Positions 2,304 through 26,660 of a DNA stretch of 53,275 bases are shown one piece after another. Numbering within the stretch: the stretch's first letter is position 1; the number at the start of each line of letters is the position of its first letter. Below the pieces are notes generated by a model. The model had not been told where the DNA came from and ran no database searches. It saw nothing but the letters and a program-made list of their open reading frames with translations. The DNA is taken from positions 1 to 53,275 of the forward strand of contig JBBQPO010000007.1 in NCBI GenBank assembly GCA_038217285.1. Direction: 5' to 3'. The position numbers and the translations under genes are program-made. The DNA comes from Chthonomonadales bacterium. GTDB taxonomy: Bacteria > Armatimonadota > Chthonomonadetes > Chthonomonadales > Chthonomonadaceae.

Positions 2304-4211
2304 TTTATCAAAGAGCCTGCCGTCGTCACCCGCAAGGATTTCAGCCCCGTCGGCATCTCGGCCGAGGAGATGGAGCGCCTGAAGCTGGAAGACGGCATCC
2401 GTCTGCACGAGATCATCAAGGTCGAACTGCGCACCTATGCCCGCGAAACCGGGAACCGTGTCGTGAAGCCGTTTCTGCTCGTCATCGCGCGGGACACCTA
2501 CCACGCGACCCAGTTGGTGGGGCGCATCGAGTCGGAACTGTTCGAGGGCCGGTATGTCGGCAAAGTGCTGCAAGTCGATTCCAAACAGACCGGAGCCGAT
2601 GAAGACGCCATGGTCAAGAACCTGCTTGCCGTCGAGGACGTGGACAACGAGATCGAGATCGTCGTCCACGTCAATATGCTCAAAGAGGGCTGGGATGTCA
2701 CCAACCTTTATACCATCGTGCCGCTGCGCGCCGCCAATGCGCGCACACTGATCGAGCAGTCCATCGGGCGCGGCCTGCGTCTGCCCTACGGCAAACGAAC
2801 CGGAGTGGTCGCCGTCGATCGTCTGAACATCGTCGCGCACGATAAATTTCAGGAGATCGTGGACGAAGCCAACCGTCCCGACTCGATCATTCGCCTGAAG
2901 CAAGTGATCCTCGACCCGGCGCAGCTCACGGCAAGTCCTGTCACGGTGATTTCGCAGCCACAGTTGGAGATCCGCCTGGGCATTCCCCCCACGCACCTGC
3001 TTCCCGATATGCAGGTCGCCGAAAGCGACTCTCCGCCCGCTTTCAGCACGCCTCGAGAGCAGGAGATCGCCCAGATCGCCTATCAGGCTATCCGCCGTAT
3101 GGAGAACAGACCGGAGAAGCTTCCCGGCGTTGCATCCCTGCAAAAGCCGGATGTTCAGGCGCAGATACTGCAGGAGGTTCAGGCCCAGTATCGCCCTGTG
3201 CAGATGGAGATGGATGCGCTCATTCCCGCGCCCGACTTTGCCGCCATTGTGGCCGCGACGACGGAACTGGTCATCCAGCAGACCATCGATATACCGCGCA
3301 TTCTGGTCATCCCCAAAGCGGAGGTCAAAACCGGCTTTCGGGACTTTACGCCCGACGTAAGCATCTTCGGATACGACGCTCCTTCCGAAGATATGGTCCT
3401 TCAGCATCTGCGGACGCATCAACAGGAGATACTCACCTTCGGGCGGGGAGGCGTTGACGCAACCCGGCTGGAAGACTATATTGTCTACGAACTCATCGAG
3501 TTCAACGATGTCTCCTACGACGACAACGCTGACCTACTATACGACCTGGCAGGGCAGACCGTCGAACATTTCCGTACCTATCTCACAGAGGATGAGATAC
3601 GTCGCGTTTTGCAGATGCACAAGACCGCAATCGCCAAAAACCTTCATTTGCAGATGCAGCAGCACTACTGGGAAGAGCCTGTCGAGCATGAGACCAAAAT
3701 CAGCAAAGGATTTTCTGCACTCAAACCGAGCGCTTACACCGCGTCCGCCACGGAACCGCCTTTGAACTTCCACGTCTCCCCTCCCGACAAAACCAACATG
3801 GCGAAGTACCTTTTCGGAGGCTTTGCCCACTGCCTCTATTCCGTTCAGAAATTCCACTCCGAAGCCGAACGCATTCTCTCGGTGATCCTGGATAGAGACT
3901 CTCTGAAATGGTTCAAGCCCGCCAGAGGCCAATTTCAGATCTTCTACAAGCAGGGCGCGGATCATCACGAATACGTGCCCGACTTTGTGGCCGAAACCGA
4001 GGATAGGATCTATCTGCTGGAGCCGAAAGCCCTCAATGCAATGGAAGACCCGGTTGTGTTGGCGAAGCGCGCCGTCGCGATCAAATGGTGCGCGGAAGCA
4101 ACAACACACGCCCAGAGTTATGGGGGCAAACCCTGGAAATATCTGCTCATTCCTCATACCGCCCTCAACGAAGGAATGACGATAAGCGGGTTAGCCAGAA
4201 TATATTCCTGA
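2304..4211 (+). pseudogene. Type III restriction Res-like helicase/nuclease, C-terminal two-thirds
   Basis: Begins abruptly at FIKEPAVVTRKDF. Has helicase C-lobe motifs HVNMLKEGWDV and EQSIGRGLR and a C-terminal YVPDFV...LLEPK nuclease motif. Walker A and DExH are missing. Confidence 0.75.
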
Positions 4212-18290: not shown

Positions 18291-20432
18291 CTACTCCGCG
18301 CAGCGCGCAAACTGCACGAGATTGGTGTGGAAGGTCGAACCGCCGCCCATATCCGTCAGGCGATCCGAGGTCAACAGGTTTACGTTACCGCCGTCGGGGC
18401 TGTCGCGGTTCCACCAGAGCGAGGGCGACCAGGCCACACCCGCCTTCACGTTGTCGCTGACGACGGCCCGCAGCTTGACCTCCCCCCGCTTATTCCAGAC
18501 CCGCAGCCAGTCGCCGTCGGCGATCTCGCGCGAAGCGGCGTCCGCCGGATTGACCCAAATACGCGGCTCCTTCTCCCCTTTCTGCAGGGAGGGCAGGTTG
18601 GAAAAGGTGGAGTTGAGGAAGTGGTGCGCGGCGGGACTCAGCAGATTGATAGGGAAGCGCCGCCCCAACTCCGGATCGGCCTCCGCGCTCTCGGCCGCCG
18701 GCTCGTAGTTCGGCAGCGCGTCGAACCCGTCTCGTGCAGCCTTCTGCGAGCGGAACTCCACTTTGCCCGAGAGCGTCTTGAAGCCTCGTGAGTCGGAATC
18801 GGGTGTCGGCGCATAGGGCACGAACGGCTCACTCGGTGTGCGCAGCTTCGCATAGCCATGCTCCAGCAGCGTCTCGTAGGTGATCCCCTGCATCAGCGGA
18901 CTGTCGGACTGCAGCGCGCCCCGAATAATATCCTCGGCGGTCTCGTCGAATACGGAGTCGGTGTAGCCCATCGCCTTCGCCAGCGCGTTCAGCACCTCGA
19001 TATTGGGCCGGGATTCGCCGAGCGGTGGCACAGCGGGCTGACACAGATTCAGATAGAGCTGCCCGTAAGACTTCATCAGGTCGAGGTGCTCCATCTGCGT
19101 GGTGGCGGGGAGGACGATGTCGGCGAGGAGGGCGGTGTCGCTCATCATCTGTTCGTGCACCACGGTGAACAGATCTTCGCGCAGAAGGCCCTGTCGTACC
19201 AGATTCCCGTTGGGCGCGACGGCGGCGGGATTGGAGTTGAAGACGTAGAGGGCGCGGATCGGCGGGTCGGCAGCCTCCAGAAGCGCCTTCCCGATCTCGT
19301 TCATATTGATAGCGCGCGGCACACGCCGTCCCCATTGGACGAGGCTCTCGTCGTCCGGCGAATGCACGAGATCGGGGCGTTTGATATGGCGCTGGTTCAG
19401 CCCAAAATGGGCGCTGGTGGAGAGCAGCATCCCGCTCCCCGGCTTGCCCCAGGCTCCGATGACCGCCGGCAGGCAGGCGATGGCGCGGATCATACCGCCG
19501 CCGTTGCCGGTGCGGGAGAGGCCATAACCGAGGCGAATGGCGGAGGGGGTCTTGGTGGCGTAGGCGCGCGCCAGGCGAGCGATCTCGTCGGCTTCCAGGC
19601 CGGTGATCTCCGCCACGCGTTCGAGCGGATACTCGGCGCACCGCTCCCGGAACTCCTCCCAGCCGACCGTGCTCTGCTCCAGAAACGCCCGGTCGTGCAG
19701 GTTCTCGCTAAAGATCACATGGGCCATGCCGAGCGCGAGGGCGGCGTCGGTGCCGGGCTTCGGCTGAACGAACCAGTCGGCGGCGTTGGCGGTGCGGGTG
19801 CGGTAGGGATCGATCACCACGAAGGTCGCGCCCCGAGACTGCGCCTCTCGTACGATCGGCATCTGATGCACATTGGTGCTGCTGAGATTGATACCCCACG
19901 CGATGATGAAGCGGCTGTTGACGAAGTCCTCCGGGTCCATCCCGCCCGACGAACCGTTCACATAGCCGTATCCGACCTCTGCGGCTGCAGAGCAGATCGT
20001 TCGCAGGAGTTGGCTCGCGCCCATGCGGTTCCAGAGACGGGTATCGCAGGCGCTCATATTCACCACGCCCATGGTGCCCGCATAGGAGTAGGGAAGGATC
20101 GCCTCCGGCCCGCTGGTCGCGATGATCTCCTTCCAGCGCATCGCGATCTCCGCAATCGCCGCCTCCCACGAGATCGGCTCGAAGTGGCCTTCGCCCTTCT
20201 TCCCCACGCGTCGCAGCGGCGTCAGCAGACGATCCGGACTGTAGACGCGCTCCTCGTAGTGTGCCACTTTGCGGCAGAGGTTGCCCCGCGTAAACGGGTT
20301 GTCCGGGTTGCCACTCACCCGGATAAGCTTCCCATTCTCCACCGTTGCCAGCATGGAACAGGTGTCCGGGCAGTCGTGCGGGCAGGCCGTCTTCACCACA
20401 CGAATCGAAGGCGAAATTTCTGTGACAGACAT
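18291..20432 (-). CDS. Molybdopterin oxidoreductase family protein
   Basis: ACPHDCPDTC...LCRK Fe-S motif, ADIVLPATT, and a C-terminal molybdopterin-dinucleotide-binding domain. Confidence 0.92.
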   Translation of the reverse strand: MSVTEISPSIRVVKTACPHDCPDTCSMLATVENGKLIRVSGNPDNPFTRGNLCRKVAHYEERVYSPDRLLTPLRRVGKKGEGHFEPISWEAAIAEIAMRWKEIIATSGPEAILPYSYAGTMGVVNMSACDTRLWNRMGASQLLRTICSAAAEVGYGYVNGSSGGMDPEDFVNSRFIIAWGINLSSTNVHQMPIVREAQSRGATFVVIDPYRTRTANAADWFVQPKPGTDAALALGMAHVIFSENLHDRAFLEQSTVGWEEFRERCAEYPLERVAEITGLEADEIARLARAYATKTPSAIRLGYGLSRTGNGGGMIRAIACLPAVIGAWGKPGSGMLLSTSAHFGLNQRHIKRPDLVHSPDDESLVQWGRRVPRAINMNEIGKALLEAADPPIRALYVFNSNPAAVAPNGNLVRQGLLREDLFTVVHEQMMSDTALLADIVLPATTQMEHLDLMKSYGQLYLNLCQPAVPPLGESRPNIEVLNALAKAMGYTDSVFDETAEDIIRGALQSDSPLMQGITYETLLEHGYAKLRTPSEPFVPYAPTPDSDSRGFKTLSGKVEFRSQKAARDGFDALPNYEPAAESAEADPELGRRFPINLLSPAAHHFLNSTFSNLPSLQKGEKEPRIWVNPADAASREIADGDWLRVWNKRGEVKLRAVVSDNVKAGVAWSPSLWWNRDSPDGGNVNLLTSDRLTDMGGGSTFHTNLVQFARCAE

Positions 20433-20469
20433 GATTTACTCCTGTTCATCTTGCACATCATCTACAAAA

Positions 20470-20536
20470 ACGTACTTTCCGTTCGTGTACATAGAGACAT
20501 CAATTTGCTATGATCCTATTTACGTACTTTCAGTTC
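20470..20536 (+). promoter_or_regulatory. Controller-gene promoter flanked by two C-box-like repeats
   Basis: ACGTACTTTCCGTTC (20470-20484) and ACGTACTTTCAGTTC (20522-20536) flank TGTACA(20486)-17-TATGAT(20509), which has an extended TG. Confidence 0.6.
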
Positions 20537-20553
20537 AGGTTAGGACGAGCAAA

Positions 20554-21374
20554 ATGGATCATTTGGAAGCCCGACAACGCTTCGGCCGACGATTACAGGC
20601 CCGACGAGTTGAACGTGCGCTGACGCAAGAGCAGTTGGGCGAAGCGCTACAGAAAAGCACGGAACACATCAGCTATCTGGAGAGAGGGAACGTTCCCCCT
20701 CCTTTGAGATGCTGTTATCCCTCTCTCATGTACTCGATACGTCTGTTGCAGAGCTTCTCGATGAACAGACGACGTCTACCGATGCGCTCATAGAGGTAGT
20801 TCCTCCCGCTGCTCCACTCCCAGACCTGCCTCAGCGCACCCCGGCAGTTCAGGAACAGCGCCTTTCAGATCTCGAACGCCTCAATGCCTCTATGCAGGGA
20901 CTGCGTGATATGCAACGTCTTGCAGACGAGTATGGCATTAACGATATATTGCAGGACAACGGTGGGAAAGTACTTCAAGTGCTTATTTTGCTCGGCTTAA
21001 AAATATCACCAGGCCGAGAAGGTAATGATGCTGTCGATTCCGAAGGCAAGGAGTACGAGCTAAAAACGGTCAATTTGGCGCTGAATCCTCGGGCAGGTAT
21101 TACCACCCATCATCACCTCAACAAAGCCATTATTCAAAAGTACCGTAACGTTCAGGCCTGGTATATCGCCATCTATTCCGGCATCGAACTGAAAGAGATT
21201 TACCGCGTTCTGCCCTCCGACCTCGAACCTCTGTTTCAGCAGTGGGAACAAAAGATCGAGGCCACCGGCAAAGAGTTGAATAACCCTAAAATTCCTATGC
21301 GTCTCGTTCGAGCAGCGGAACGAATGTATCCGAAGTCGGCAAGTAATCTGCCGCAGACTCCAGCAACTCCGTAA
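20554..21374 (+). pseudogene. Controller (XRE HTH)-PvuII-family restriction endonuclease fusion, frameshifted at ~20686-20688
   Basis: Frame 1 gives MDHLEARQRFGRRLQARRVERALTQEQLGEALQKSTEHISYLERG. The -1 frame continues ERSPSFEMLLSLSHVLDTSVAELL (end of the HTH) into INDILQDNGGKVLQV...PGREGNDAVD...EYELK...THHHLN...NNPKIP, which matches R.PvuII. The REase part alone is an open frame from ATG 20709. Confidence 0.8.
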
Positions 21375-22347
21375 ATCGCCCCTGTTTTGCTTGCGGCAAA
21401 CACAAAGGTTCGGCGCTCGTCATCAACTCCTCGTAGAGCGCTCCCACTTGTTTCGCTCCGATCTCTCGGTCTATAAAACGAAATGAAGAGGCCAGAAGGT
21501 ACGACCTTTCCTGTTCAAACGCTACCCAATTTCGGCCTGCCTCTTCGGCAGCGGCACCGGTTGTATTGGAACCAGCGAAAATGTCCAGAACTTGATCTCC
21601 CGGCTCGGTCAAAAAGTTGATAAAGAAAGCGGGCAGTTTCTGCGGGAAGCGCGCGGGATGTGCGGGCAGGTCCGCAATCTTGCAGCGTTGCAGATAGAGC
21701 GAATTGCTCTCTGTGTTGGCGATCTGAAGCAGGTTCGAAGGAATCGCGCCTTCGTTTATCGTCGCGAAATTACCACCGATATCGTGGCCGGAGGGGCGCT
21801 TCTTTGGCGTATAAAAGGTTGATGGGTCGCTCTGCAGCTTCTTCATGCGCTCCGAATAGGGAACGAGGACGCGACGTACGTCCGCTTTAGGATAGTCGCT
21901 CTTGCTGAGCCACCATACTGTATCCACCGAGTCCTTGGCACGGATCTTTCGTTTATTGACCCACTCGATAGGCGACGGTAACTTGGCGGGATTATGCCAA
22001 AAGAACTCTTCGGCTAGCCGGAAGTTCAGATCGTCGCATAACTTTATCAGAATCCGGTAATTGTAAAGTGAACGCACCGGGCGGCCCTTTTCATAAGCGC
22101 CGCCGAGATCGAGGACAAAACTGCCGTCAGGGGTCAGTACACGGTACACTTTATGGCAAAAGGCCGCGAGCCACTCTACGTAAGCCGATTGATCGACATT
22201 CCCATAACTTTTCTCACGTTGCAAAGCAAACGGGGGCGATGTCAGAACCAACTGCACCGAGTCGCTCTCCATCTCGTCAAGTAGGTCCATAGAATCGCCA
22301 ATATAGGCTGCGCCATGCTGGGTCACATAAAGGGGTTTGGTTCGCAC
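21295..22347 (-). CDS. N4-cytosine DNA methyltransferase, M.PvuII-like (beta class)
   Basis: TSPPFALQREKSYGN, KLPSPIEWVNKRKIR, HPARFPQKLP and DIFAGSNTTG closely match M.PvuII. GTG start with AGGAGG RBS; overlaps the REase 3' end by 80 nt. Confidence 0.92.
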   Translation of the reverse strand: MRTKPLYVTQHGAAYIGDSMDLLDEMESDSVQLVLTSPPFALQREKSYGNVDQSAYVEWLAAFCHKVYRVLTPDGSFVLDLGGAYEKGRPVRSLYNYRILIKLCDDLNFRLAEEFFWHNPAKLPSPIEWVNKRKIRAKDSVDTVWWLSKSDYPKADVRRVLVPYSERMKKLQSDPSTFYTPKKRPSGHDIGGNFATINEGAIPSNLLQIANTESNSLYLQRCKIADLPAHPARFPQKLPAFFINFLTEPGDQVLDIFAGSNTTGAAAEEAGRNWVAFEQERSYLLASSFRFIDREIGAKQVGALYEELMTSAEPLCLPQAKQGRFTELLESAADYLPTSDTFVPLLERDA

Positions 22348-22476
22348 AAATTGCCTCCTGCACAGACTATCAGCTCGCATGACGGCAGAATAGGTAGCAA
22401 GCTCAACCTTCGCTGCCGAAAAGCGAGCTGATCTCTCTTTATTCCCTTTTCAGAGAAACTCCGACCGCGCCTTACT

Positions 22477-23526
22477 TCAGGTGGTGGCGATACGGTACGC
22501 CCAGCGGCACCCAATGAACAGGAAGAGCAGCGTAAATAGGACGTGGCCGGGATTATGGCTGGGATCTCCACCCAAGTAGATAAGGAGTTGACAGGGCAGA
22601 ATGGCCAGGACTGTGAGCACCACGGCCAGGATACCGGCGGCCTGGGTCGGTTGACGCGTTCCCATCTTGACGGCCCAACCGACCATAAATCCGACGCCGA
22701 GCGCCATATAGCCGATGGTCATATTGGTTGCCATGACAATCGCTATGTAGATGCCGCCACCAACGATGGCTGCGAGGAGGCCGAAGACCACGCCGAGGAT
22801 ATAGTTTCCGGGCGTCACAGCGGGCAGTGGGGCCGACAGCGGACGCTGCTGCTGCTGCGCGGCATAGGGATTATGACCCGGATAAGGCTGCGACTGCGTT
22901 CCATACGGAGCCTGCGGGTGAGGATAGCCGGGCTGCTGCGGAGGATACGGTTGCTGCGCCGCGCCGTAGGGATTGTACGCGGGTTGACCGGGCGCAGGCT
23001 GCTGCGGTTGCTGCCCGTACCCTGCCTGTTGCCCGTAGCCCGGTTGCGCCGGAGCGCCATAGGGCGGCGGCGGCGCGCCGTAGGGAGCCTGAGGGTTGTA
23101 AGCTCCGAGCGGCTGGGGCTGCTGCGGATGCTGTTGGGGATAGGCCGGGTTCTGCGGAGCGCCGTATGGCGGCTGAGGAGGATACTGCGAACCGGGCGGG
23201 GGAGCGTAGGCGTTTCCGGACTGACCGACGGCAGGAGCGCCATACTGTGGCGTGACGGGCGGCTGGCCTGGAGGGGCATAGTTAGCGCCGGGTGAGTTGT
23301 AGGGCTGATTCAGGGGCTGGGGCGCCAGCGGCTGCCGATGCGGGGCAGAAGCGGATTCGGAATTCAACTGCGTGGCGACACGGGAGCGGATCGCCGCGAG
23401 GCAGTTTTGACAGACAGGTTTGCCCGCGACAAGCTGCGTACATTCAGGGCAGAGCGTGCGTCCACATTCGGTGCAGAGTGCGGTCGCGGGGCGGTCGGTG
23501 TGCAGCATACAGACAGAGTTGGCCAA
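22477..23526 (-). CDS. B-box-type zinc finger + Pro/Gln/Tyr-rich linker + C-terminal TM domain protein
   Basis: TTG start with GGAGGAG RBS; CxxH...CxxC...CxxC...CxxC, a long low-complexity P/Q/Y/G tract, and about 4 TM helices. Confidence 0.75.
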   Translation of the reverse strand: MANSVCMLHTDRPATALCTECGRTLCPECTQLVAGKPVCQNCLAAIRSRVATQLNSESASAPHRQPLAPQPLNQPYNSPGANYAPPGQPPVTPQYGAPAVGQSGNAYAPPPGSQYPPQPPYGAPQNPAYPQQHPQQPQPLGAYNPQAPYGAPPPPYGAPAQPGYGQQAGYGQQPQQPAPGQPAYNPYGAAQQPYPPQQPGYPHPQAPYGTQSQPYPGHNPYAAQQQQRPLSAPLPAVTPGNYILGVVFGLLAAIVGGGIYIAIVMATNMTIGYMALGVGFMVGWAVKMGTRQPTQAAGILAVVLTVLAILPCQLLIYLGGDPSHNPGHVLFTLLFLFIGCRWAYRIATT

Positions 23527-23576
23527 GACGATTCTCCTCCACAAAAATAAGACCGAGGGCAATGTCACGTGGGAAG

Positions 23577-24671
23577 TTAGAAGTGTCGGGACATACGACG
23601 TAGATCCCATAGCCAGCCCTGCGTGGTCAGGCTGGCAAAACCCAGAAGAAGCACGAGGCCGAAATAGGCCAGGCTGTAGGTCCGTTGATCTTGCTTGCTG
23701 ACCTGAAGAGCTGGGTCGATCCCGAGACGCCACTGCGACGTGATCTGAGGCAGCGCAAACAACACCAGCAGCCAGGAGACCGGACACCGATAGTTGATCA
23801 CCGCCGTCGCGAGCAGGCCGCCCAGAAGTATCTTCGGCGGAATGATCGCGGCGACACGCCCGCCGTCGAGAAACGGGATCGCGCTGAGGTTGAACAGATT
23901 CATGTAGAAGCTGAAGTAGGAGAGCACCAGCCAGATCGGACTGCCGGTCATCCCATACACAGCGCCGCAGGCAAGGCCCGCCAACATCCCTGCCACCGGC
24001 CCCATGATCGCGATCTGCGCCGCCTGCGCGGCGCTGCCCACGGCATCACGCTGCACAAAGGCCCCTAACAGCGGAATGAACACCATGGCCCTGACCTGAT
24101 ATCCCAACTGCTTGATGGCGACGGCATGGCCCGCTTCGTGGGCAAAGATCAGGAGCACGACCCCCGCCCCCAGGTGCCAGCCGTAGAGCGCTGAATAGGC
24201 CAGAACCGACACCATCATGGAGCCAGCCGTGATAAAATATTTGCCGAACGTCAGGAACTTGAGGCCGATCAGCAGACCCTTGAGCGCGCCCCCGAACTTG
24301 GCGAGCGCGATCCCGATGGCTCCCAGACCGCCCAGAACGCCTTTGCGCTGCGTCGATTTGGCGGAGCTGGATTGCGGTGAACCGGGTGGCAGAGAGGGCG
24401 AGGGAGCCTGCTGGGGAGGATAGGGCGGAGGATACGACGCGGACGGATAGTGCGGAGGATACGACGGTGTGGCCGATGGGAAGGGGGGCGGTGGTAAGGC
24501 GTGATAAGACGACCCGGTCGGAAAGAGCGGTGGCGGTGGTTCAAACCCTCCGGAGGCAGGCGCAGGAGGGGCCCCATTCGCCGCATCGGACGACGGCGGG
24601 ATCTGGCCCTGGAGCGCGCGGTCGCGCTCCTCGATCAGTTGGCGGCGGATTTCGGCTTCGATCTCGCTCAT
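23577..24671 (-). CDS. Site-2 protease (M50) with Pro-rich N-terminus
   Basis: HEAGH, IAIMGP and NLFNLSAIPFLDGG motifs; multiple TM segments. Confidence 0.88.
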   Translation of the reverse strand: MSEIEAEIRRQLIEERDRALQGQIPPSSDAANGAPPAPASGGFEPPPPLFPTGSSYHALPPPPFPSATPSYPPHYPSASYPPPYPPQQAPSPSLPPGSPQSSSAKSTQRKGVLGGLGAIGIALAKFGGALKGLLIGLKFLTFGKYFITAGSMMVSVLAYSALYGWHLGAGVVLLIFAHEAGHAVAIKQLGYQVRAMVFIPLLGAFVQRDAVGSAAQAAQIAIMGPVAGMLAGLACGAVYGMTGSPIWLVLSYFSFYMNLFNLSAIPFLDGGRVAAIIPPKILLGGLLATAVINYRCPVSWLLVLFALPQITSQWRLGIDPALQVSKQDQRTYSLAYFGLVLLLGFASLTTQGWLWDLRRMSRHF

Positions 24672-25661: not shown

Positions 25662-26660
25662 TTGACGGAGATGATACCGACACAAAGATCGGATTTTGGG
25701 CGGATATGGAAGGCAGTAGAAGGTTGGCTGCCTGCCGCCTACTCCCACTTCTACCGGGCAGGACTTACGGGCGAAGTGATTCGAGGCTCCGGCCAGGTTC
25801 TGATTGCCAGTGATCTGACCCACCTGCTGATCCCCGGTCTGGCCGCTCTCGGCGTCGAAGCACACCTGATGCCTTTGCCGCCGGAGGACGCGAATCTGGA
25901 GCGTTGTCTGACAGGAAGCGACGCGGCTGTTCTCCTGTTCGGTTTCGGCGCTTCCCTCGAATTTTTACCACCCGAGGAGATCGACGACGCGACGCCGTTG
26001 CCGCTGGATGCCGACCCGGCGATTACGGCGCAGGCTCTCTTTGTGGAATTTACCGCAAACGGTCTCAGCTGGCAGAACGCCGACGGCGCTGTGGAACGCG
26101 CAGAGGCGCCAACGTTGCGCGCCCGCTTCTCCCATGTTCTCTCGCTTGAAAAATCCGGAACGAAAGGCCTGCGCCGCCGCAACAGCCTGCAGGCCGCTTT
26201 GCATCGCTGGCTGGCCTGGCAGGCCGCCTATCCGGAACGCGCTCCACGCGAGGCCGACCTCACCGACCCTGCTTGTGGGCTTGCAGCCGGTTTCCTGGCG
26301 GAGGCCGTCGGTGCTCGCCATGATTTCGTCTCCAACCGTCTGCGTTATGCCGCTCAGTGTTTCGAATCGGCCCAGATCGAACGCGCCTTCGCCTGGCTGC
26401 AAGAGGCCGCTCTTGCTGAATGGCAGTTGCCTGCTGCCACCGCCGAGGCGCTGCTCTCCGCGCCCGATCTTCCCCTTGCCGACGTTCTGCGCCGTGAGTT
26501 GATCTACCTGGCCCGCGCCGGCACGCCCACGCTGAAAACGCTCGCCGCCCGCCGCCTCACGCCCGAATGCCATCACCCGGACGCCCAAAAAACCCTCCAC
26601 CAACTCTGCTTTGATCGCGCCCCCTGGGTTCGCGCCGCCGCCCGCCCCATCTCTGCTTAG
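25662..26660 (+). CDS. Hypothetical protein (helical, possible HEAT-like C-terminus)
   Basis: 332-aa ORF with protein-like composition; its stop overlaps the convergent gene; ends DRAPWVRAAA. Confidence 0.6.
   Translation: MTEMIPTQRSDFGRIWKAVEGWLPAAYSHFYRAGLTGEVIRGSGQVLIASDLTHLLIPGLAALGVEAHLMPLPPEDANLERCLTGSDAAVLLFGFGASLEFLPPEEIDDATPLPLDADPAITAQALFVEFTANGLSWQNADGAVERAEAPTLRARFSHVLSLEKSGTKGLRRRNSLQAALHRWLAWQAAYPERAPREADLTDPACGLAAGFLAEAVGARHDFVSNRLRYAAQCFESAQIERAFAWLQEAALAEWQLPAATAEALLSAPDLPLADVLRRELIYLARAGTPTLKTLAARRLTPECHHPDAQKTLHQLCFDRAPWVRAAARPISA

Follow-up and report, generated by a model that had tools for sequence, protein, structure and literature searches.

A frameshifted PvuII-family controller-endonuclease fusion gene, probably a recent pseudogene, next to a whole methylase gene in a Chthonomonadales bacterium

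In the window, which is the 53,275-nt stretch of Chthonomonadales DNA analysed here, a gene of the type that codes for a fusion of a helix-turn-helix (HTH) controller with a PvuII-type restriction endonuclease (C-REase fusion) is interrupted after codon 45 by the lack of a single base, beside a whole gene for an M.PvuII-type methylase. Judging from its reading frames, the window copy is a pseudogene of a C-REase fusion of the PvuII family. We consider it probable that the missing base corresponds to a real, recent one-base deletion, with which both the controller and the nuclease were lost and a methylase-only locus was left. The event appears to be recent, because the frameshift is the sole lesion and because the nuclease domain is identical, at the protein level, to that of an intact allele.

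Frame 1, read from ATG 20554, yields MDHLEARQRFGRRLQARRVERALTQEQLGEALQKSTEHISYLERG (MDHLEARQ...STEHISYLERG), followed by 34 out-of-frame residues that are unlike any sequence of the family, and it ends at a TAG stop (20791-20793), which gives a truncated product of 79 residues. In the frame one base back, no stop occurs from a point before the break as far as 21374. This frame reads ERSPSFEMLLSLSHVL... and harbours, in this order, ERSPSFEMLLSLSHVLDTSVAELL, a Pro-rich stretch and the nuclease domain. In Pfam searches, the N-terminal piece covered no more than profile positions 1-43 of 64 in HTH_31 (1.4e-8) and reached profile position 36 of 55 in HTH_3 (1.2e-5), and these early ends of both matches indicate that the HTH is cut by the break. 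The C-terminal piece matched Endonuc-PvuII at 1.6e-63, over residues 60-209 of the piece. An HTH and an R.PvuII domain in one uninterrupted frame are absent from the window, where the frame changes after codon 45, and its products have 79 and at most 221 residues. The public gene calls at the locus are a 160-residue 'nuclease' (P0122) and a small HTH protein. The original prediction had proposed this layout, an HTH-linker-R.PvuII fusion with a one-base frameshift inside the HTH, and it is borne out by the frames and the Pfam matches. It had also described the methylase gene as convergent and overlapping the nuclease gene by 80 nt, in agreement with the methylase ORF, which shares 21295-21374 with the fusion. 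All features are collected in Table 1.

Table 1. Features of the window and lesions of five damaged related loci (positions for L072 are those of that locus)
Feature	Position	Strand	Basis or remark
Left neighbour, molybdopterin-type oxidoreductase gene	18291-20432	-	
Whole R-M cassette, ~2.04-kb insertion	20433..22476	.	Empty site in congener, GC
Putative distal C-box ACGTACTTTCCGTTC, then GTGTAC	20470..20491	+	Like PvuII operator GACT-N3-AGTC-N4-GACT, as given in PMC2175313
Promoter-like site: TGTACA, 17-nt spacer, TATGAT, TG before the -10 hexamer	20486..20514	+	
Putative proximal C-box ACGTACTTTCAGTTC, past the -10 hexamer and 52 nt downstream of the distal box	20522..20536	+	
First 45 codons of the fusion gene, HTH helices through the recognition helix (…STEHISYLERG)	20554..20688	+	43/45 residues identical to P0121 1-45
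Break site AGA GGG AAC, one base missing relative to intact alleles	20683..20690	+	Contig comparison
Out-of-frame tail, 34 codons and TAG stop (79-residue product, P0126)	20689..20793	+	
Rest of the fusion, frame one base back	20688..21374	+	224/228 residues identical to P0121 46-273
HTH helices 4-5, ERSPSFEMLLSLSHVLDTSVAELL	within 20688..21374, frame one base back	+	
Longest ORF with a start codon after the break, 221 residues	20709-21374	+	
Pro/Glu/Thr-rich linker	about 20760-20864	+	
R.PvuII domain, then C-terminal tail	about 20865-21314	+	PF09225
M.PvuII-type N4-cytosine methyltransferase gene, whole	21295..22380	-	1boo_A, N6_N4_Mtase
Right neighbour, Pro-rich membrane protein gene	22477-23787	-	
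L072 (Coleofasciculus culture assembly), 4-nt tandem duplication at about codon 42	2615-2641		
L073, residues 1-38 missing			
L074, R and M both cut			
L075, ends at about residue 220			
L076, ends at about residue 215			

An intact fusion of 273 residues from another data set, P0121, is ~98% identical to the window copy. The two window pieces meet exactly at its residues 45|46, with no residue lost or gained, and show no difference from it past residue 94. Since the pieces join in this manner, the break is no chance look-alike. The 90%-identity cluster of the 221-residue ORF holds three sequences, namely the ORF itself (P0001, from a 4049-nt Logan contig), P0122 and P0121. In an alignment of 23 fusions, E43, R44, E46, R47, P49, S50, F51 and E52 are invariant. 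These residues belong to the motif ERGERSPSFE, the most highly conserved part of the HTH, and it is this motif that the break divides.

The break site was checked on Logan contigs of sequencing runs aligned to 19800-22400. Intact alleles were compared at the base level through the difference tables of the contigs from runs X2 and X3, and P0121 was compared as a protein. Run X1, which probably represents the source sample, yielded a 4049-nt contig with a depth of about 7 that shows 0 differences and 0 gaps over 20509-22400, and the inserted base was found at the site in 0 of a depth of 7.18. Runs X2 and X3, from other samples and studies, yielded a 2467-nt contig (depth 6.4, 56 differences over 19800-21215), which includes the same left-flank gene as the window, and a 186-nt contig (depth 3.8), respectively. 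Both are about 96% identical to the window and are in frame at the site, where they read ERGER: an A>G change at 20685 is accompanied by an extra A behind 20687, and the frame is restored. The remaining X2 differences that could be placed correspond to R12S, V19I, T63M, T73A, I80V and Q94R of P0121 or fall on third codon positions. Among the contigs of these three runs, the broken allele is found in the source sample only and the intact allele in sister populations.

In the closest intact relatives, the Gly codon GGA is followed by GAA, and losing that A or a G yields the identical window sequence; the lost base may be either, the two events being indistinguishable. The claim of the original prediction that a base is missing holds, but this base need not be a fourth G, given the A>G change and the inserted A of X2 and X3. 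Among the three explanations offered there, an inactivating mutation that leaves the methylase is the one favoured by the near-identical intact alleles and by the in-frame family.

A word index of 5.8 billion proteins was queried with the second piece and gave 948 matches; 116 among the best 120 of them harbour the HTH and PvuII domains in one protein, mostly of 265-280 residues. From species-representative genomes, 300 loci were found and 80 kept, to which 6 more distant metagenome loci were added, and the resulting 86 loci were searched by tblastn with P0121 and the window's methylase. Bacteroidota-type loci (L079-L098) are about 41-43% identical. The fusion gene is whole or cut only by a contig end in 76 of the 86 loci. 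The methylase gene diverges from the fusion gene in 43 loci and converges with it in 34, and in the other 9 it is out of reach. In undamaged convergent loci, the 3' ends range from a 41-nt gap to a 65-nt overlap, setting aside the truncated L075 (+113) and one distant, weak methylase match. The 80-nt overlap of the window lies at the upper end of the convergent range and is not different in kind.

Damage beyond contig ends was detected, at the contig level, in five of the 86 loci (L072 to L076, Table 1), and the methylase is full length in four of these five. In L072 the break arose independently, lies three codons upstream of that in the window and splits the gene into ORFs of 46 and 148 residues, with a whole methylase gene. 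Two short N-terminal products run out of frame after about residue 62 (P0127, 771-nt contig) and about residue 83 (P0129), and the 1247-nt contig of P0129 also yields a nuclease piece, P0123. As read from these contigs, decay of the fusion gene appears to be recurrent and not tied to one site. We considered a mutation hotspot, given the proximity of codon 45 in the window and codon ~42 in L072, and discarded it: other copies are hit at ~38, 62, 83, 206, 215 and 220, by different lesions.

Several further loci deserve mention. P0034 is a 154-residue nuclease call, 88% identical, from a MAG labelled Chthonomonadaceae, and it hints at another disrupted copy. L081, L087, L089 and L091 (about 2400-3050), in MAGs labelled Thermomicrobiales, Ktedonobacteraceae and Chloroflexia, harbour PvuII-type nuclease ORFs of 172-184 residues without an HTH, overlapped over 15-19 nt by a convergent methylase gene; L091 has a separate HTH gene beyond the methylase gene, on the other strand. 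In L092 (Microscillaceae MAG, 1454-2406), the methylase matches in two frames (residues 9-234 and 238-324) and the fusion nuclease looks whole, a combination of broken methylase and whole nuclease that should be lethal if both readings are true.

Upstream of the fusion gene, the control region, composed of two putative C-boxes and a promoter-like site, is intact as far as its sequence indicates. The 15-mer ACGTACTTTCNGTTC occurs only at 20470 and 20522 in the whole 6.2-Mb genome. In a promoter scan, the promoter-like site scored 9 of 12 and is the sole such site in 20380-22560 (shuffled sequences gave a mean of 1.5, so that the scan has no significance by itself); in relatives, too, the site lies between the two boxes. 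Of 36 related loci, 29 have the strict box ACTNNNAGT, for which the chance expectation is about 0.04 per 170 nt, at about -69 to -89, and 18 have it, as does the window, at -28 to -36. The PvuII operator GACT-N3-AGTC-N4-GACT is described as having a CGTG-type spacer and a half-box that overlaps the -35 hexamer (PMC2175313). By analogy, we infer that the distal site would mediate activation and the proximal site repression, and that neither would operate without a working HTH.

A comparison with structures in the PDB aligned residues 106-253 of P0121 with residues 5-150 of R.PvuII (E 4e-44). The NDAVD…EYELK, THHH and NNPKIP stretches are aligned between the window nuclease and R.PvuII, and presumably include the catalytic and recognition residues of the latter. 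The methylase aligned with M.PvuII (1boo_A) at 2.5e-129, over residues 14-321 versus 6-313 of 323, and its ORF matched Pfam N6_N4_Mtase at 6e-38; NCBIfam gave nothing above cut-offs for the fusion or the methylase. The start codon of the methylase is likely to be GTG 22347 rather than the first ATG at 22380, on account of an AGGAGG six bases before it (22345-22359, minus strand) and of its fit to the N-terminus of M.PvuII in the structure alignment. The locus is composed of a whole methylase gene and a frame-broken nuclease gene in which the nuclease domain ORF is undamaged.

An artefact of sequencing or assembly could also account for the missing base, the organism then truly having an intact 273-codon gene. 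The depth at the site is low, at about 7, and the break falls in a short G run after a GA repeat. Support from the source sample consists of two assemblies, probably made from the same reads at ~7x; this is contig-level evidence, with which a mixed population or a systematic error would be compatible, as contigs drop rare variants. Against an artefact, two different assemblers agree exactly over 20509-22400, a de Bruijn contig is made solely of words present in the reads, and none of the X1 contigs shows an inserted base. The 151-nt contigs in sister runs suggest that the data, possibly including those of X1, are short reads, in which single-base deletions are rare, and the neighbouring 713-residue gene aligns over its full length with three congeners without a frame break. 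As the second assembler reproduces the deletion from the probable source sample, we regard a sequencing error as quite unlikely. If the deletion is real, the fusion might still be produced by programmed -1 recoding, with some ribosomes slipping back one base at GGG to make a small, throttled amount of the full-length protein. Indeed, the -1 frame has no stop before its end and gives back a perfect sequence of the family, and Liang and Blumenthal weighed frameshifting in a C-REase fusion, at the junction and as a means to release free C, but in the account given there saw no free-C frameshift product (PMC3850674). In our data the shift is not kept: alleles 96-98% identical to the window are in frame, as are 116 among the best 120 homologues, which answers the question raised in the original prediction of whether orthologues share it. 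The sequence A GGG AAC at the shift does not fit the X XXY YYZ slippery heptamer, and the 102 nt downstream have a minimum free energy of -19.9 kcal/mol versus a shuffle mean of -18.2 (z -0.62, with pseudoknot-free folding). An Rfam search of 20300-22600 returned no element, and the other broken alleles have different lesions at different positions. Of the two observations that the original prediction had set against recoding, intact orthologues and the lack of a trans-frame product, the former was made. Programmed recoding is disfavoured by these sequence comparisons, to the point of being very improbable. A phase-variable R-M gene was also considered and rejected, in view of the lack of a long homopolymer or repeat in the window, where there is only GGG after GAGAGA; intact relatives have GGGGA at the site and no long tract.

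A further possibility accepts the deletion as real and supposes continued synthesis of the nuclease from an internal start (ATG 20709 or those in MQGLRDMQ), driven by a promoter devoid of both activation and repression, which would give a low-level, controller-less PvuII-type system. The nuclease ORF is untouched and identical past residue 94 to a functional-looking allele, and the 221-residue ORF or the 160-residue P0122 could in principle still be translated. The promoter-like site has a TG before the -10 hexamer (extended -10), and the repressor would be lost as well, so that basal transcription may not be negligible. Controller-less PvuII-type systems are on record (PMC3850674), and the four related loci with R-only ORFs of 172-184 residues and a convergent methylase gene (L081, L087, L089 and L091) would be of this kind. 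Several points argue against such residual expression, however. ATG 20709 is not preceded by a Shine-Dalgarno-like sequence, the bases before it being CCTCCTTTGAG, and the Met at this position is not conserved, the family usually having T, V or L. The upstream ORF stops 84 nt beyond this ATG, which makes translational coupling unlikely, and the 160-residue form lacks the first dozen residues aligned to R.PvuII. In addition, C-dependent promoters are described as requiring C for substantial REase expression (PMC3850674). On balance we find a nuclease still made from an internal start unlikely. It is likewise improbable that the locus shows a fission caught in the act, which would illustrate the origin of the controller-less R-only loci above and would be tolerated because of a CAGCTG-poor genome.

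We thus return to a real deletion that inactivated the fusion, and propose the following course. In its intact form, the system would comprise one gene encoding an N-terminal controller HTH, a flexible Pro-rich linker and an R.PvuII nuclease, and a convergent gene encoding an M.PvuII-like m4C methylase. The intact fusion would bind the two C-boxes that flank its own promoter, so that its synthesis would be turned on first and limited later. Loss of a base just past the recognition helix would result in a 79-residue product devoid of HTH helices 4-5, linker and nuclease, and with the activator gone the promoter would stay basal. The net state would be R-minus, C-minus and M-plus, with a freshly pseudogenised nuclease beside an intact methylase: activation and restriction would be lost, and methylation would continue at the locus. 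The nuclease gene is very probably dead, and its loss beside a whole methylase gene would be nothing unusual for a defence system of this type at the start of its decay. Solitary methylases are described as rarely arising by in situ decay, and total loss as frequent (Oliveira et al. 2014, PMC4176335). Following the fates described there, total loss would be likelier in the long term than a domesticated orphan, and the locus would represent a snapshot of early decay.

The cassette itself appears to be a small, horizontally acquired insertion, as indicated by the lack of a PvuII domain in relatives, an empty site in one congener and a low GC content. In congener G001 (L103, 1470-1500), both flanking genes are 30 nt apart, with no cassette between them; the 1-1.5 kb examined in G002-G004 did not include the right-hand neighbour. 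The GC content is 0.48-0.55 inside the cassette and 0.60-0.70 in the flanks, and inspection of the cassette edges by eye revealed no clear target duplication. No PvuII domain was detected in 60 related genomes (4 of the genus, 32 of the family and 24 of the order), which gave 9 HTH-only matches at 32-38% identity, and the four congeners have no M.PvuII orthologue, the best match being 27% identical (in G002). The right-hand neighbour encodes a protein of 436 residues, for which NCBIfam returned no match; its N-terminal part is Cys-rich, its long middle is rich in Pro, Gln and Tyr, and its C-terminal part is of membrane type.

Regarding the target sequence, no other of the 64 six-base palindromes is avoided as strongly as CAGCTG in the genome of the window (G000), where 160 sites were seen versus 1052 expected (ratio 0.15); one CAGCTG site of the window is at 26066. 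G001 and G002, in which no PvuII-type R or M was found with these queries, are equally CAGCTG-poor (138 and 157 sites in 5.7 Mb), whereas G003 and G004 are not depleted (2567 sites in 4.5 Mb and 838 in 3.7 Mb, respectively). The sharing of this depletion by the cassette-free G001 and G002, but not by G003 and G004, suggests that CAGCTG restriction has long been present in part of the genus, a point with no direct bearing on the frameshift.

Both the fusion type and the convergent layout have been published before (PMC3850674). In 2013, Liang and Blumenthal reported five C-REase fusions belonging to the PvuII family (PMC3850674), in keeping with the statement of the original prediction that natural fusions of this kind had been reported. 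According to that description, such fusions act as both nuclease and activator. Three of the five are cyanobacterial; their C-box lies unusually far off, and their linker of ~25 residues is rich in Glu, Thr and Pro. Among these three, the Asp90I and Gsp7428I fusions have a convergent methylase gene (PMC3850674). The window resembles the published CR.Asp90I and CR.Gsp7428I in its HTH, its Glu/Thr/Pro linker, its R.PvuII orthologue and its convergent methylase gene; it differs from them in that its copy is frame-broken after codon 45 and lies in a non-cyanobacterial sediment genome. CR.NsoJS138I from Niabella soli, of the same family and the only fusion with bench data, showed PvuII-like cutting in vitro and a 23-fold activation of its own promoter in vivo (PMC3850674). 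This intact, active fusion has a short linker and a divergent methylase gene, whereas the window has the linker type and a convergent one. Compared with the PvuII R-M system (CAGCTG), the window has a nuclease similar to R.PvuII, a methylase similar to M.PvuII and an operator resembling GACT-N3-AGTC-N4-GACT. PvuII, however, has separate C and R proteins, a divergent M and adjacent operators, as opposed to one ORF, a convergent M and boxes 52 nt apart in the window.

The result is mainly of use for annotation: the locus would best be treated as a single disrupted gene of a fused type already known, and the strain recorded as having the methylase alone for CAGCTG. Our survey extends the five fusions of the 2013 paper to hundreds of in-frame ones, with both gene orientations and a conserved two-box promoter layout. 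Within this family, the window would add a dated case in which a complete type II system decays in situ while sister populations retain the intact allele, a route to solitary methylases judged uncommon in the pan-genome survey as reported (PMC4176335).
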